Sequence record: OQ174507.1
Reading direction: 5' to 3' (one strand)
From: Escherichia phage REP8
DNA length: 64,000 nt
The notes beneath the pieces were generated by a model that saw nothing but the letters and a program-made list of their open reading frames with translations, was not told the origin of the DNA and searched no databases. Shown piece after piece: positions 1,904-59,435 of this stretch (its first letter is position 1; every line of letters begins with the position of its first letter). The translations under genes and the position numbers were made by a program.

Positions 1904-2143
1904 AGATAATCCTCTTGTCTTCTGTAATTTTGAAAGAACAGGTACAGACCAATTTCAGAGGATGAATAGTAGAGTAACTCTACCCTTTTTGATTCCTTAC
2001 AGTGATTGGTATTTTTACCTTTCTTCGGGTTGTTTGATTTTCTCATTAAGTCTCCTTTGTAGAACAAGGCAGACCTACAGCTTTAAGTAAGATGGTACAG
2101 TAATCCATACAACAAGTCAAGAACTATTGCAAGTTAAAAAAGT

Positions 2144-2168
2144 TGTTGACAAGGTACTTGACAAGGTG
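2144..2168 (+). promoter_or_regulatory. conserved promoter-like block with tandem TTGACA boxes (copy 1)
   Basis: GTTGACAAGGTACTTGACAAGGTGT, near-identical to 43703..43727; both are followed by ACTTAAAAGGTT and lie upstream of plus-strand genes. Confidence 0.45.
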
Positions 2169-2295
2169 TAGGCTTATAAATACTTAGAAGATTACTTAAA
2201 AGGTTCCTCTAAAAAGGCTATTTAAACAGATATCTTTCTGGATATCTATCTTTTATCTTAAAAGCCTTTTAAGAGGTCTTATAAGAGGCATACCA

Positions 2296-2667
2296 ATGAA
2301 AAACAGAACAAACAAAGGCCAGTTTAAAAAAGGCCAGTCTGGAAACCCATCTGGAAGACCAAAAGGCTCTCGTAACAAAAGCTCACTTGTAAAAGCTCAA
2401 CTGACCATTGACAATTCTGCTGAGTTTGCTGCAAAGTTATTTGAAGCGATTGTTACAAGGGATGCTGCTAAGCTTGCAGAGTTCGGTTTGACGACTGATG
2501 ATGTAAACCTGAAGTCAATGATGGAAGCTGGTAAAACTATCATGACCCACTCAGCAGGTGAGATGAAAGCGATTGCAGCAGACACTAAGAAGACCCCTGA
2601 TAATGGTGGTCAGTCTCAGACAGATAACAAGCCAACGTTCTCTGCTGTAGCGACTCTCAAAAAATAA
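2296..2667 (+). CDS. hypothetical protein with N-terminal GNPSGRPKG basic motif
   Basis: 123 aa ORF; AAGAGG RBS upstream of ATG. Confidence 0.45.
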   Translation: MKNRTNKGQFKKGQSGNPSGRPKGSRNKSSLVKAQLTIDNSAEFAAKLFEAIVTRDAAKLAEFGLTTDDVNLKSMMEAGKTIMTHSAGEMKAIAADTKKTPDNGGQSQTDNKPTFSAVATLKK

Positions 2668-4164: not shown

Positions 4165-4183
4165 AAAGTTTTAAAAAGGGTAT

Positions 4184-4212
4184 TGACAATGTGTTTAATA
4201 CCCTTTAATATG
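4184..4212 (+). promoter_or_regulatory. sigma70-like promoter overlapped by an 8 bp inverted repeat (possible operator)
   Basis: TTGACA, 17 bp spacer, TAATAT; AGGGTATT/AATACCCT inverted repeat spans the -35 box and spacer. Confidence 0.5.
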
Positions 4213-4274
4213 TTCTACATAGAAACGAAATGAGAGCTTTTCTAAGATACTGAAAAATATTTTAAAAAAGTTCT

Positions 4275-16452: not shown

Positions 16453-16902
16453 ATGTGTTATACAGGCGACCCAGCCAATAACCCTCTTGATAGAGTAAGA
16501 ATCCTCTGCACAGACACCAATAATGATGAAATTCTTATTGAACAGTCTGTGCTAGAGTGGTTCTATCTAGAATCTGGAAAGGATGAAAAGAAAGCAGCCA
16601 TCAAAGCTCTTAAATATTTACTCTTTCAAGTAGCCAAGATGGGAGATGAGAAGGTTGGTGGTGTTTATTTACGTAACTCTTCCAGATTCAAGTCTCTGAA
16701 AGCTGTTTATGACGACCTTGTTAAAAGCTCTGTTTCAGGACTACCCTATGCAGGTGGTATTAACCAGTGTGATATTGACATGCGTCGTCATAATCCTTGC
16801 TCTGTCAAGAAATACACAGAATATGGTGATGCTGCCAGATACGAAGGCAGAGATTACTGCAACCGTGTTAATGGCGTATTTATTATCGAGCGAGATGAAT
16901 AA
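16453..16902 (+). CDS. head-tail joining protein (hypothetical)
   Basis: 149 aa, position. Confidence 0.3.
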   Translation: MCYTGDPANNPLDRVRILCTDTNNDEILIEQSVLEWFYLESGKDEKKAAIKALKYLLFQVAKMGDEKVGGVYLRNSSRFKSLKAVYDDLVKSSVSGLPYAGGINQCDIDMRRHNPCSVKKYTEYGDAARYEGRDYCNRVNGVFIIERDE

Positions 16903-35775: not shown

Positions 35776-36105
35776 TTAATCTGCCAACCTTAAATTGAAA
35801 TTAACACCAAATTTTTCACATACTTCCAACATATACTCAAGGGAGACGTTACCAGTGAGATGGATTATGTTGGATACACGAGCCTGAGAGATACCACAAA
35901 TTTTAGCAACTTGCTCTTGAGAAAGACCTCTGGATTTAATCTCTCTCTTAAAACGATGTGCAACGAAGTCTCTCATTTCGTCTACATCCATTGGACAAAT
36001 ATAACTCTCCATTTCAGCCTCTCTGTCAGCCTCCCAATCATCTTGTGGAGCATAAGGGTCAAAAACCTCATTCATCTTTCTTCCTCCGTTTGCGTGGAGT
36101 GTCAA
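35776..36105 (-). CDS. HTH DNA-binding protein
   Basis: 109 aa; LSQEQVAKICGISQARVSNI helix-turn-helix. Confidence 0.45.
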   Translation of the reverse strand: MTLHANGGRKMNEVFDPYAPQDDWEADREAEMESYICPMDVDEMRDFVAHRFKREIKSRGLSQEQVAKICGISQARVSNIIHLTGNVSLEYMLEVCEKFGVNFNLRLAD

Positions 36106-41232: not shown

Positions 41233-41500
41233 CATCTGGTCAATACACTCGCAAGGTGTACCAGTTCTCTTATGAACTTCTCCGCATTTCTACGGAGTGT
41301 CGGACTATATCACGTAGTAGTAATACTACCGTTGCACTTGGGAATGGTCATTAGCTTACCACCCTACTCTACTCAGTTCATACATTAAGTATGCTTTTCG
41401 ATAGTCTCTGAACGTTCCTCTCAAGAGGCTTCGCTGCTGATTACCGTATCTTCTCAGACTTAGGCTTCCAGCAATTCACAACGTTTTACATGCGCCACTG
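41233..41500 (-). ncRNA. group I intron in the DNA polymerase gene
   Basis: 268 nt; exon ends ATGCGT and intron nt 6-11 GCGCAT form P1; GTTCAGAGACTA (R) and GATATAGTCC (S); last nt G; opens with a stop in frame; no ORF inside. Confidence 0.6.
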
Positions 41501-43673
41501 ACGCATAAATGCCATTTTTGGCTTTCTTACGACCTTTTGTAATCTCGTGGAGAAGTTCCTCATCCTGTGTCTCCCTGCAACGAACAATATCCTCTTCTTT
41601 GTTAAGACCAAAGTAAATACTGTTCAGTGTATGCGCATCAGTCCCTGTGTAGACTTCATAGAGGTCGTTCTCAGCATCATAACGAAGATACTTATCAGTT
41701 TCTGGATTAAGATACTTATCGAGATGCTTGCAATAGTATCTGCCATCTTCTTGCTTAGTGAACTCTACTGACTCTTTACCCTCAGTTACCGCTTTGGTGA
41801 ACTCTTTATCACCCATAAAGTTACAAAGAAGAACAAGCTGTGCAGAGTTCTGGTCAACTGAAACGATATTAGTCCCTTCCTCGCAAATCCAAACCTCCCT
41901 CATAGGCGCTCCATAGACAGCAGCACCAGACGGTACGTTTACAATACCATATTGTGTCATACGTCCAGTTGAAGTACCAAACACCATTGCACCAGCACTA
42001 AGGCGACCATCAGGACGAATCTGGTTCAACCAACCTTTTTCATCATCCTTTGAGTTCTCAATAGTTCTGCGTCGGTGCATCAAAGTATAGTACTTAGCAA
42101 TCTTCTGTCCAAGCTCACCTTCAATCGTGTCATAAGATGATTCAGTAAGTTTTGGTGAAGTACGGATTAAGCAAGGCTCAAGCAAATCTGTGTATTTCTT
42201 CACAGACCAGTTATGTTCAATGTACTGTACACCTTCATGCTCAACATAGCTCAAACCACACCGCTCAACCATTTCCTGCCACTTAGGATGCTTTGTAATC
42301 ATCTTTTTATTGTCTTTGAAACGACAAACTTTAACAGGGCGACCATCTGAGTCTTTCTTGTAGTTCCAGTCATCTGGAATCCAACCAACTGATTTCAAGT
42401 AGTCTTTAACAACTGCTACCTGAGTCATACGAGAAACTTCAAACTCAATTGGTGTATACGGTGCATCAATCAAACCTGTGTAGCGACTCGACTCAAGCTC
42501 AAAGTGGTTAACAACGTGGCTGTTATAGTACTTCACAGTTTTGACTGTTTTTACTGGCTTCCAGTCTTTGCATTTCTTACCAATCTTTGCGTTCAACTCA
42601 TTGCAAATTGCACGAGCATCCTTCATTGCTACAAAACCTTCTTTGTACTCTTCACCAGTTACAGAGTTGGTTGGTGTATAGCAATTCCGCTTTTCAATGT
42701 TAAAAATCTTTGTAGTTGGCTTACCAAATGGCTTGATTTCATATGTCTGCATCTCACCGTTACGTACCTGTTGACGATACTTTGTCTTAGGGTACTTGGT
42801 AATTCTCTTCAGTCCATCTGCATGACCAAATGCTTCAACATACTCATTCCAAGCTTTTGCAAACTCTTCTCCAGTGACTTTACCTTTGGTCTTAATAGTT
42901 GGAGGTAGATGTGGTTCAACCTCTGAAGCAAGCTCATTAGTCAACTTGTCAAGTTCCTTTACATGGAACTCCATAAGTTCTTTATCAGCTTTCCAGCCAT
43001 TGATAGCTTGTTGACTCATCCAGAAAGATGTTTCTTTAGCTCGCATGTAGGTTTCATAGGTGTCTACGCCACACTTCTTTAGCTTCAGATATTCATTATC
43101 CAATGCACGTTTAGTTTTGGCGTTGATACGGATATCTTCTACAACACGAGTGAAGATTTCTGCATTCCACACACCCCAATGTTCAATCTCTGGTTTACGA
43201 ACACCAACACGAGCACCCCATGCAGCCAAGCCATGAGCACCTTTATAACCCTTTGGAGTTGGCCTATCCATCCACTGAACACGAGACTGGATAAGAGAAT
43301 CCTGAAAGAAATTACTCCACGGTTTACACTTTGGATTATCAAAGTTCCATAAATCAGGTGCAATGTGATTGAAAACCCACCAGTCATAACCGAGACCGTT
43401 ATGGATGCAAAGACGTTTTGCCTTTAACGCAAATTCAACACCTTCACGTAAACCACCCTTGATGTACTTAGTGTACTTGTGACCGAGGATAGGTTCATCT
43501 GTAAAGACCCATACAGGTGGCTCTTCATCGTCAGATTTATAGTCTGCGAAAGCCATTACGTGCACTTTAGTGAACTCAAGAAGTAAACCATCAGTTTCTG
43601 TATCACCAACTAAATGTAAGTTTTTAAAATCTACGTTTTCCATTTTTACTCCCTCTAAAATCATTAACCTCAT
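41501..43673 (-). CDS. DNA polymerase (family A, T7-like), exon 1
   Basis: N-terminal exonuclease motif LVGDTETDGL; ends ...RKKAKNGIYA in the middle of motif B. Confidence 0.65.
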
Positions 43674-43702
43674 ACATTACTGCAAAAAATTATAAAAAGC
43701 AA

Positions 43703-43727
43703 GTTGACAATGTACTTGACAAGGTGT
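43703..43727 (+). promoter_or_regulatory. conserved promoter-like block with tandem TTGACA boxes (copy 2)
   Basis: GTTGACAATGTACTTGACAAGGTGT; in the divergent region between polymerase and 43901. Confidence 0.45.
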
Positions 43728-43900
43728 TAATCTTTGCGAAGTGGGTTTTTACTTAAAAGGTTACTTAACAGTTTAACTATACAGATACTTTAAAACTCTT
43801 AAAAGATTATTTAATAGCTTTTAAAAAGCTTTAAAGTATAACGTATAGAATACGTTAAGATAAAAGATTAAAACTTAATAGTTACTTAAAAGAGGCTTAC

Positions 43901-44323
43901 ATGCAGAAAATGTTTGTTCACCCAGACATAGCTGACTTTGTTAGGGCTTTGCAGAAGTTGGAAGAACTTGACATTGCTGCTCAACGGGAATATGCTCACC
44001 ATCACAGGAGAATGGTTGATATACAACATGAAATAGAGTTGTCTGAAAACTATGAAGATGACTTAAAATGCTCTGTATTTGAGCATATGAAAGATGTTGC
44101 TACAGCGAGACGTAAAGCTAAAGACACAGTTGCTTTACTAGATTCTCTTAAAAAGAGGTTGCAAAGTGGTACAGACCTGTGTAATCTAGCGTCACTGATT
44201 AACGATGTTGAAACTTCTTGGGATAGACATTACTATCCACGTTCTGAAAAGACACTTGACTTTTCTTCATCAGAAAACTTAAAATGCTCTAGAAAGAAAC
44301 TTAACCAACTGAGAGAGAAATAA
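43901..44323 (+). CDS. hypothetical protein
   Basis: 140 aa. Confidence 0.4.
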   Translation: MQKMFVHPDIADFVRALQKLEELDIAAQREYAHHHRRMVDIQHEIELSENYEDDLKCSVFEHMKDVATARRKAKDTVALLDSLKKRLQSGTDLCNLASLINDVETSWDRHYYPRSEKTLDFSSSENLKCSRKKLNQLREK

Positions 44324-56821: not shown

Positions 56822-58018
56822 ATGAACAAAGTACAGATTATTAAAAAGAATGGCTCACTCGAAGAACCTGATATCAAAAAAGTTTTAACAGCAGTCACAA
56901 AGTCAGCTAATAGGGTTGGGTATAAAGAACTCCCGCCAGATGTTACCCAAGCTCTTGAGTCAGCATTTATGAGGGTTCTGGTAAAATCCACTAAGCAGAA
57001 TAATTTACTCGTTTCAGTAAATGATATTCACAGTATTGTTGAGGGTGCTTTGGCAGAAGTCAATCACGAGATTTATGAGTCTTACTCAACATATAGAAAT
57101 TACCGTAAAGAGGTTGCTCAAAACTGGGATGAACTCTACCAGAAGACTAAAGATACACTCTTCTTAGGTGACCGTGAAAATGCTAATTTTGACAGCAGTT
57201 TAATTTCTACGAAAGGTTCAATTATCCGTGGTTACCTGACTAAAGAAATCTTTAAACAGTATCATCTAACACCAGAGGAACTTGAAGCCATTGAGAAAGG
57301 CTTTGTCTATATCCATGATTTAAGAGACCTGATTTTTGGTGGTATTAACTGTTGCCTGTTTGACATTGGTAAAGTACTAAAAGGTGGCTTTGAAATGTCC
57401 GGCATTGAGTACTGTGAACCTAAATCTGTACTGTCAGCGTTGCAGGTTATTGGTGACGTAGTACTTTCAGCAACTGCACAGCAATTTGGTGGTTTTACTT
57501 TAGCAGAGATTGATAAGGTACTTGTACCGTATGCGAAGAAGTCTCTACGCTATCATGCTGAGAAAGCATCATCTTATGGTATCCCTAAAGAGCATTACCA
57601 CAATTATGTCATGGAGCAGCTACAGATTGAACTGACTCAAGGTTTCCAGTCGCTTGAAATGAAACTAAACACTGTACCTTGTAGTCGTGGGGATTTTGCA
57701 TTTACAACTTTGACATTCGGGTTACTTGACTCAGACATGTCTAATGAAGACAACCGACTGCAATACATGATTGCAAGTACTCTCCTAGATGTTCGTATGA
57801 ATGGACAAGGTAAGAGTAAGAAGCCTGTTGTATTCCCTAAACTGGTTTATATTTATGACCAGAAGAGACATAATGAGAATATCTGTCAAGGCCACCTGTA
57901 CAGTAAAGCTATAGAGTGTTGCTCTAAAGCGATGTATCCAGATTTCTTAAGTGTATCTGGTCATGGTGCTGTAGCAGAAGCTTTTGAGCGTTCTGGTAAG
58001 GTTATTTCACCGATGGGT
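56822..58018 (+). CDS. nrdD: anaerobic ribonucleotide reductase, exon 1
   Basis: ATP-cone-like N-terminus; ends ...ISPMG with T as last exon nucleotide; an in-frame TAA opens the intron. Confidence 0.65.
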
Positions 58019-58334
58019 TAACAAGCTCTATAGCTCATCTAAAACGTGCCTAAACAGGGAAACTCTACAGATGTAGACAATCCTGTGCTAAATGATGTAC
58101 GATGTAAGAAACTATACAACATAGGGGTCTTACATGCCAAATAACTTCGAATATGAGTTTGGATACATCTAAATGCCGAACGACTAACCGTGATGAATGT
58201 AGCGGTGTAGGGTCAAGCGACTCGAAATGGTACGCTACTTAGAAATAAGTAGAAGATATAGTCTGGACTTACTGGCGACAGTAAGCAGCTTGAATAAAGC
58301 GGGGTAAGCGTAGCGAACTTACCTGAACAACAAG
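58019..58334 (+). ncRNA. group I intron in nrdD
   Basis: 316 nt; AAGATATAGTCT (S element), GACTAA (R/P7 region), last nt G, preceding exon ends in T; no ORF inside. Confidence 0.6.
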
Positions 58335-59282: not shown

Positions 59283-59435
59283 AACTTGACAAGGTGGTGT
59301 GGGTCTTGATAGGCTTACATCACCTTTTTATTGGATGTTAGATATGGCTGAGAGTATTATTGGGTTGTTCATAGGTTCTGTCTTACTAGGGTTCTTTTTA
59401 GGACTCTCTTATTGTGAATTGAGAGATAAGTTAAA

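Follow-up and report, generated by a model that had tools for sequence, protein, structure and literature searches.

Why do two distant loci of one phage genome share a 25-bp block that holds two TTGACA hexamers, and are both hexamers used by RNA polymerase? We addressed this question in a stretch of 64,000 nucleotides from Escherichia phage REP8 (OQ174507.1), which in its whole length is referred to here as the window. A first-pass annotation had read the block either as a strong early promoter with a non-standard downstream element or as a shared regulator binding site. The repeat itself is real. The pattern GTTGACAAKGTACTTGACAAGGTGT has exactly two matches in the window, both on the plus strand, namely GTTGACAAGGTACTTGACAAGGTGT at 2145-2169 and GTTGACAATGTACTTGACAAGGTGT at 43703-43727, which are identical at 24/25 positions, and a match with up to 3 mismatches was present in 0/100 dinucleotide-preserving shuffles. 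The second copy lies where it had been placed before, while the first begins one base later than the 2144-2168 given by the annotation. The block is a 12-bp tandem direct repeat, TTGACAAGGTAC followed by TTGACAAGGTGT. The full genome of 85,751 bp was rebuilt from REP12, and the window is 100% identical to REP9-REP12 over two tested stretches, with REP11 marginally lower on one of them. The genome-wide search for further copies that the annotation had proposed yielded no third copy at up to 6 mismatches in this reconstructed genome. A recent duplication or a chance repeat was rejected, because both boxes are invariant across lineages and the bases between them vary. The proteins adjoining the loci in the compared lineages are 84-99% identical to those of the window, with only 84-92% identity in some lineages.

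The phage is a Felix O1-like myovirus (Felixounavirus, Ounavirinae), and the two copies of the block occupy the two divergent intergenic regions of its genome, which are the gene 40/41 and gene 96/97 switch points of Felix O1. Copy 1 is flanked by a leftward unit of hypothetical, tail and lysis genes and by a rightward unit that comprises the genes for a DUF5681 protein and a vWFA/DUF2828 protein, approximately 24 tRNAs, the terminase and structural genes. Copy 2 separates the leftward DNA polymerase unit from a rightward replication/nucleotide-metabolism unit. Both copies face the plus-strand units, the first genes of which are listed in Table 1. As the annotation had described, each copy is followed by ACTTAAAAGGTT (2194-2205 and 43751-43762, 24 and 23 nt past the block end), by an AT-rich leader and then by a plus-strand gene. 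Promoters at these two switch regions of Felix O1 were already assumed by Whichard et al. (PMC3185647). According to the same study, Felix O1 encodes neither an RNA polymerase nor sigma-modifying proteins, and its temporal control and the transcription start around the divergent regions are unexplained.

Table 1. Features at and around the two block copies in window coordinates; promoter elements, start sites and RNA structures are predicted
Feature	Coordinates	Strand	Remark
Box 1 TTGACA, predicted -35, locus 1	2146..2151	+	12.0 bits; invariant in 11 haplotypes / 28 sequences
Box 1 TTGACA, predicted -35, locus 2	43704..43709	+	12.7 bits; invariant in 10 haplotypes / 29 sequences
Box 2 TTGACA, locus 1	2158..2163	+	12 bp downstream of box 1, in the spacer, ~-23 to -18
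Box 2 TTGACA, locus 2	43716..43721	+	Inside the spacer; invariant while 43711-43714 vary
Predicted -10 TAGGCT, locus 1	2169..2174	+	Predicted start ~2180-2182
Extended -10 TGtTAATCT, locus 2	43725..43733	+	Predicted start ~43739-43741
A6 tract, UP-element-like	2136..2141	+	~-45 to -40 of the predicted locus-1 promoter
Single-box paralogue of the locus-1 promoter, TTGACAAGGTGG...(18 bp)...TAGGCTTA	59286..59315	+	TAGGCTTA at 59310
Leader motif TTACTTAAAAGGTT, locus 1	2192..2205	+	~+12 to +25
Leader motif TTACTTAAAAGGTT, locus 2	43749..43762	+	~+10 to +23; directly repeated as TTACTTAACAGT at 43761
Predicted leader RNA stem-loop, locus 1	2195..2285	+	Outer stem 2195-2220/2260-2285; inner hairpin 2228-2235/2240-2247
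Small leader hairpin AACGTAT-AGA-ATACGTT, locus 2	43840..43856	+	Both arms change in relatives, pairing kept
DUF5681 protein, first gene of the rightward unit	2296..2667	+	Followed by vWFA/DUF2828 protein, tRNA cluster and structural genes
phrog_4039, no assigned function, first gene of the replication/nucleotide-metabolism unit	43901..44323	+	
Predicted leftward promoter, locus 1, TTGACT (2120-2115)-17 bp-TACCAT (2097-2092)	2092..2120	-	Consensus scan; 11.8 bits
Second leftward candidate, locus 1, TTGTCA-18 bp-TGcAATAGT	2123..2152	-	9.3 bits; TTGTCA is the reverse complement of box 1
Predicted leftward DNA-polymerase promoter, locus 2, TTGCTT (43702-43697)-17 bp-TAATGT (43679-43674)	43674..43702	-	7.1 bits

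Judged from the anatomy of the two sites and from their relatives, it is quite probable that host RNA polymerase with sigma-70 recognises each copy as a promoter core, that the upstream TTGACA (box 1) serves as its -35 hexamer and box 2 as a selected accessory feature, and that ACTTAAAAGGTT is transcribed. The sigma-70 weight matrix used here is approximate, with hexamer frequencies of textbook compilations. Its top plus-strand site in the intergenic region consists of box 1, 17 bp and TAGGCT at locus 1, and of box 1, 18 bp and TGtTAATCT at locus 2 (scores in Table 1). Box 1 agrees with the -35 consensus at 6/6 positions at both loci, and both -10 candidates keep T-12, A-11 and T-7 at a spacer within the range of 16-18 bp. 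The weak -10 noted by the first-pass annotation is found again at each locus, and because each -10 matches the consensus at only 3/6 positions, both promoters fail a stricter scan that demands 4/6. The TGn of an extended -10 is conserved at locus 2, while at locus 1 a TG abuts the hexamer out of register. Transcription would start near 2181 at locus 1 and near 43740 at locus 2. An A-tract lies just 5' of box 1 at locus 1 and also at locus 2, as it does in most, but not all, of the T4-like examples described below; the A6 tract of locus 1 is presumably a UP element, given the consensus of the proximal subsite. The promoter at locus 1 would drive the DUF5681 and vWFA genes, the tRNA cluster and the structural genes, and that at locus 2 the replication/nucleotide-metabolism unit.

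Conservation was followed in 57 sequences (28 for locus 1 and 29 for locus 2; 21 haplotypes), drawn from related IMG/VR entries, Felix O1 and the window. Both TTGACA hexamers and the -10 positions T1, A2 and T6 are invariant throughout this set. The interior of the -10 varies, reading TAGGCT, TAGCCT or TAAGTT at locus 1 and TGtTAATCT, TGgTAGTCT or TGtTAGTCT at locus 2. The more distantly related Erwinia phage phiEa21-4 (Kolesnikvirus) carries canonical single-box promoters in the corresponding positions: its TTGACA-16-TAGAAT aligns with box 1 and TAGGCT of locus 1, and its TTGACA-17-TACATT is the counterpart of locus 2, a homology that was assigned by eye as the MAFFT alignment is unreliable there. 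Box 1 keeps a steady spacing of 17 (18) bp from the -10 even where box 2 is shifted. In addition, the single-box paralogue at 59286 demonstrates that the pair of TTGACA and TAGGCT exists without box 2. The predicted promoters are in themselves ordinary, being host-type, located at expected places and already predicted in public records.

The promoter part of the earlier reading is thus upheld by the weight matrix, by the homology to phiEa21-4 and by the public predictions, all of which are sequence evidence, but the label "early" was not borne out. In end-point RT-PCR, the Felix O1 genes 41, 42, 97 and 98 were at maximal expression at 25 min and not at 5 min, and this 25-min peak poorly fits a simple, unregulated host-type early promoter. 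No transcript 5' ends, RNA-seq, in vitro transcription or reporter data for any Felixounavirus were found in the literature searched.

Each rightward promoter would stand back-to-back with a leftward promoter. At locus 1, the leftward promoter sits in a block that is almost invariant in relatives, and a second leftward candidate is weaker and only partly conserved. At locus 2, the predicted leftward promoter is consistent with the start of the polymerase gene at 43643. Its -10 reads TAATGT, TAGGGT, TAGTGT or TAAGGT in relatives, so that T-A-n-n-G-T is kept, and the conservation of AAAAAGCAAG, just 5' of box 1, would be explained by this promoter.

If transcription starts near 2181 and 43740, the 14-mer TTACTTAAAAGGTT would be part of both transcripts; it has no other exact match in the genome. 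A third doubled-box promoter of the genome is followed by TCACTTAAAAGATT, which suggests that leader motif and promoter type travel together. The supposed non-standard downstream element ACTTAAAAGGTT lies at ~+10 to +25. At locus 1 it is better explained by the folding model, in which it probably forms the 5' side of a stem in the leader, close to the ribosome-binding site, and is not a promoter element. The predicted outer stem of this leader, with 2195-2204 in its 5' arm, adjoins or covers AAGAGG Shine-Dalgarno sequences, and the fold has a minimum free energy of -28.4 kcal/mol (z = -2.59). The consensus structure of seven relatives contains 33 pairs, one of them compensatory (CG/UA/UG) and one an AU/GU exchange, with the rest invariant, and the locus-1 leader is more conserved than the adjoining coding DNA. 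At locus 2 the overall leader fold was not significant (z = -1.7); the small hairpin predicted in this leader reads TACGTAT..ATACGTA and ATGTAT..ATACAT in relatives. Taken together, the support for a leader structure is modest.

Two further readings were rejected. A boxA/nut-type antitermination site found no counterpart, as neither leader has a match to boxA (TGCTCTTTAACAA / CGCTCTTA) at up to 3 mismatches for the rrn form and up to 1 for the lambda form, or to any Rfam family. A T4-type late promoter was dismissed given that TATAAATA (2175) has no counterpart at locus 2 and is replaced by AATAAAAC in relatives; a gp55 homologue was not detected in the genome by tblastn (best E-value 0.17). 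In Moogle/Susp-like lineages, ACTTAAAAGG is changed to ACTTAAAAGA(CT) at both loci. Co-evolution with a trans-acting factor was rejected as the cause of this change, since it represents one event and the third site already differs (AAAAGATT), and the change at locus 1 moreover fits the pairing of the leader RNA.

What, then, is the role of the second hexamer? The earlier description of two overlapping -35 boxes is accurate as a description, but not as a statement on function, because the upstream box alone has a -10 in register. Box 2 is under purifying selection, since it is invariant in all 57 sequences while the four nucleotides between the boxes vary among relatives, with up to 3 alleles per site. 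The offsets from box 1 to box 2 and from box 2 to the -10 are 12+5 at locus 1 and 12+6 at locus 2. The third doubled-box promoter, which lies outside the window (TTGACAATGCCCCTTGACATTGGTAATGT), has offsets of 13+4, and a doubled box at 16494 of phiEa21-4 (TTGACATTCTACTTGACAGGGGCTAAAGT) has 12+5. Box 2 was rejected as an independent promoter, as a -10 in register with it is absent at locus 2, at the third site, in phiEa21-4 and in the T4-like set. We therefore infer that box 2 belongs, as an accessory feature under selection, to a recurrent "doubled -35" design and that it is not a separate promoter. Its strict conservation is neither required nor explained by the sigma-70 model.

The same layout was encountered in T4-like phages. 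An IMG/VR scan for TTGACAANNNNCTTGACAA returned matches that are mostly chance occurrences in coding DNA and unfit for counting, but at least about 20 contigs among the matches listed carry AAAAGTTGTTGACAAAGGGCTTGACAA-nGTG-TAnnnT. These contigs are fragments of T4-like phages with UvsW, the late sigma factor gp55 (phrog_234, E 3e-62) and gp47. An assignment of the small tandem-box contigs to the Microviridae was rejected by Pfam and PHROG, which identified them as T4-like fragments, and no Rfam family was found on 18 tandem-box T4-like contigs. An unbiased sample was provided by 65 distinct regions upstream of that gp55 gene in T4-like phages. The doubled box is present in 59/65 of these regions, with a perfect second box in 55; the two boxes are offset by 11 bp in 30 and by 12 bp in 29 of the 59, and box 1 and TAnnnT are 17 bp apart in 59/59. 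The doubled-box promoter upstream of g55 in these phages resembles the Felix-type block in its succession of TTGACAA, 4-5 nt, CTTGACA, 5-6 nt and TAnnnT, usually with an A-tract upstream, and the identity with the Felix block reaches AAAAGTTGTTGACAAAG..CTTGACAA.GTGTA. In contrast, it belongs to another, cyanophage-related phage family without common flanking genes, and it is an orphan, directed away from g55 and opposed to the genes upstream. The syntenic site of the cultured cyanophage S-RSM4 reads TTGTCA-N4-TTGACA-17-TAGAAT and differs in that the downstream box is in register with the -10. Given its presence in Felix-type and T4-like phages, the doubled -35 is a recurrent conserved layout in at least two unrelated groups.

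Our best guess is that box 2 may act as an extra docking site for sigma region 4 and thereby raise the capture of polymerase. It is possible, but rather doubtful, that the doubled -35 marks a specialised promoter class of Felix O1-like and T4-like phages in which the spacer TTGACA is read a second time, either by sigma region 4 after a polymerase movement of ~12 bp or by a second factor. Such a second reading could time or throttle transcription, or it could hold the transcript for R-loop priming at the AT-rich leader. If this were true, the doubled -35 class would be tied to the temporal control or to the origins of Felix O1-type phages.

The invariance of box 2, which has no role in a plain sigma-70 promoter, would also agree with an operator, in which box 2 or the whole repeat (TTGACAA-N5-TTGACAA) is bound by a phage or host protein for temporal switching. 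Each TTGACAA is internally palindromic (TTG-n-CAA), which suits a dimeric protein, and the doubled-box promoters head both rightward units and one early gene. The late peak of the downstream Felix O1 genes, for which temporal control is unexplained, points in the same direction. The phage moreover encodes a Cro/CI-type HTH_3 protein (35776-36075, minus strand) as a candidate regulator, and this protein is without a homologue in phiEa21-4, which likewise has no doubled box at these two loci. However, phiEa21-4 does carry the doubled box at 16494 despite the absence of the HTH_3 gene, the boxes are exact sigma-70 -35 consensus hexamers, and an offset that can be 11, 12 or 13 bp is unusual for a fixed dimer site. 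Furthermore, T4-like phages, which are unrelated to this group and infect very different, uncultured hosts, have conserved the doubled box. Because the housekeeping sigma factor is the only reader of TTGACA that the hosts of both groups have in common, a role of box 2 related to polymerase is favoured over a specific repressor. We therefore regard the operator as unlikely, and the shared regulator binding site of the first-pass annotation is disfavoured as an explanation of box 2.

Locus 2 has the DNA polymerase gene on one side and the primase-helicase unit on the other, which raises a further possibility, namely that the promoter and its AT-rich leader are a replication origin as well, where the transcript primes or opens the DNA. 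No other 100-bp segment of the genome is as AT-rich as 43789-43888 in the leader of locus 2 (82% AT), leader 1 is among the top 15 windows, and repeated motifs of the CTTAAAAG type occur in both leaders together with palindromes. The T4-like doubled-box promoter is an orphan next to uvsW that runs against all neighbouring genes, as a primer promoter would. The primary origin of T7 consists of tandem promoters and an AT-rich region, and oriF and oriG of T4 consist of a promoter and an unwinding element. These origins resemble the arrangement predicted here in that a strong promoter precedes the most AT-rich DNA of the genome next to replication genes, but T7 has two complete promoters, whereas the tandem elements here are -35 boxes of one predicted promoter. 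AT-rich leaders are, however, common in phage mRNAs, those of the two loci are at least partly explained by RNA structure and ribosome sites, and a better candidate for an origin or a packaging site is found outside the window, in a 1.8-kb non-coding region rich in iterated repeats of the CTTGTTAG type. The GC skew follows the direction of transcription and is uninformative on the origin. We thus consider an origin at these promoters distinctly improbable.

Very improbable are two overlapping promoters starting 12 bp apart, with box 2 as the -35 of the second and a -10 of its own: the GenBank record of ASO1B annotates box 2-N15-AATACT at locus 1, and a -10 in register with the downstream box is present in six unrelated IMG/VR contigs among the matches listed, but the box 2-based candidates of locus 1 reach 8.1 and 6.7 bits versus 12.0 bits for box 1, a 1-nt indel displaces the candidate -10 of locus 1 in relatives, nothing qualifies at locus 2 (AAGTGG, AGTGGG), where no -10-like hexamer stands 16-18 bp past box 2, and the third site, phiEa21-4 and the T4-like set do not keep the register either.

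The preferred reading, a host sigma-70 promoter core with box 2 as an accessory feature, is of practical relevance, as Felix O1-type phages are widely used for typing and biocontrol of Salmonella and E. coli. Defined host-type promoters for both rightward units would be targets for engineering and expression control. If box 2 were mechanistically active, it would add an extra element to the standard picture of sigma-70 promoters and might be usable for strong synthetic promoters.

The closest known counterparts are earlier predictions at the same loci. For Felix O1, P41 was given as TTGACA(N15)TATAGG, with the same upstream TTGACA as box 1 for its -35, and nothing "obviously homologous" was seen by Whichard et al. 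in the 96-97 region (PMC3185647). The record of phage vB_EcoM_ASO1B (MZ726792) places a pattern-based promoter on the block at both loci, and at locus 2 its -35 is box 1. P41 and the ASO1B features agree with our assignment in the loci and in the kind of element, but they are pattern predictions with other -10 hexamers (N15 TATAGG, N15 AATACT and N16 GTTAAT), and the shared block, the doubled box, its conservation and the common leader motif are not mentioned. A description of the doubled -35 layout, of the block sequence or of tandem TTGACA was not found in the literature searched. New are the conserved doubled -35 and the leader motif shared by the two predicted promoters, a third promoter of the same type in the genome, and the conservation of the doubled -35 layout in unrelated T4-like phages.

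Among regulated phage promoters, those activated by lambda CII and P22 C1 carry TTGC-N6-TTGC direct repeats straddling the -35 (motif in PMC4837284). They share with the block a short direct repeat with units about one helical turn apart that overlaps a phage -35 region; a CII-like gene was not identified. In contrast to the 10-bp period of the CII sites, which flanks a poor -35, the period here is 11-13 bp and the repeated units are themselves consensus -35 hexamers. The early promoters of the T4-related coliphage RB43, as far as they are described in PMC3486835 with reference to Nolan et al., have a TTGACA -35, a TAAAGT -10 and a UP element. Promoters of the RB43 type are also found elsewhere in the genome studied here. 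The RB43 promoters and those predicted at the two loci have in common that they are host-polymerase promoters with a consensus -35, an A-rich upstream element and a -10 of the form TAnnnT. In the description given by PMC3486835, the RB43 promoters have a single -35, whereas the two Felix-type promoters have weaker -10 hexamers and a second -35 hexamer within the spacer.

The leader motif, shared by the 5' leaders of the transcripts predicted at the two distant divergent intergenic regions, was compared (window 2195-2204 and 43752-43761) with the Moogle/Susp-like lineages (L021-L026 and L050-L060), in which AAAAGGTT is replaced by AAAAGACT at both loci. At the first locus, this change fits the predicted pairing of the leader RNA, turning a G-U into an A-U pair.

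At the second locus, positions 43789-43888 reach 82% AT, the highest value of any 100-bp window in the whole 85.7-kb genome, and include a palindrome and a hairpin (table below). The DNA polymerase gene on the minus strand has three alternative start codons (43643, 43664 and 43673): one each is used in the REP12 and ASO1B annotations, and one opens the longest ORF. Of the three, 43643 alone combines a strong Shine-Dalgarno sequence (GAGGGAG) with a position downstream of where leftward transcription is predicted to start. The window also harbors two group I introns scoring above the Rfam gathering threshold, and the leftward DNA polymerase unit includes an HTH_3 protein of which no homologue was found in Erwinia phage phiEa21-4.

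Coordinates of the features in the REP8 window, in the genome rebuilt from REP12 (rotated coordinates) and in compared sequences
Feature	Position	Strand	Context
Terminator-like hairpin, GGGTATTGACAATGTGTTTAATACCC + TTT	window 4176-4215		3' of vWFA gene
Cro/CI-type HTH_3 protein, 99 aa	window 35776-36075	-	leftward DNA polymerase unit
Group I intron	window 41280-41563	-	interrupts DNA polymerase gene; HNH endonuclease ORF close by
Palindrome AGCTTTTAAAAAGCT	window 43816-43830		AT-rich stretch
Hairpin AACGTAT-AGA-ATACGTT	window 43840-43856		AT-rich stretch; pairing-preserving changes in relatives
Group I intron	window 57911-58285	+	interrupts anaerobic ribonucleotide reductase gene (nrdD)
Third doubled-box promoter (predicted), TTGACAATGCCCCTTGACATTGGTAATGT	rotated REP12 77481-77551; REP12 record about 84,274-84,344		outside window
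Non-coding region, 1.8 kb	rotated REP12 78853-80647		outside window
T4-like doubled-box promoter, example	L103:3868-3950	-	IMG/VR contig
phiEa21-4 doubled-box promoter (predicted), TTGACATTCTACTTGACAGGGGCTAAAGT	L067:16494-16525		early or non-coding region of Kolesnikvirus

The terminator-like hairpin contains a TTGACA separated by 17 bp from TAATAT, so that a predicted terminator and a predicted promoter for the tRNA cluster overlap here. The 1.8-kb non-coding region carries dense iterated repeats of the CTTGTTAG/CTTGTTAA type as well as CTATAAAG/CTTTAAAG motifs; it may represent an origin, or else a packaging or terminal region.

In the third doubled-box promoter, the two boxes are offset by 13 bp. 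It is overlapped by a CCCC...GGGG hairpin and followed by TCACTTAAAAGATT, and an early-region gene lies downstream.

A conserved doubled-box promoter of the sigma-70 type was also predicted in a large group of uncultured T4-like phages (59 of 65 distinct regions; IMG/VR contigs L189-L268), where it occupies the short gap that separates a DUF6561 gene from g55, which encodes the late sigma gp55. Given that it points away from g55 and runs antisense to the upstream uvsW-side genes, it has no obvious target gene. The cultured cyanophage S-RSM4 possesses a related site at the matching position (L270:560-690). In the Kolesnikvirus phiEa21-4, the two divergent loci carry single boxes only, whereas the box is doubled at the site listed in the table.
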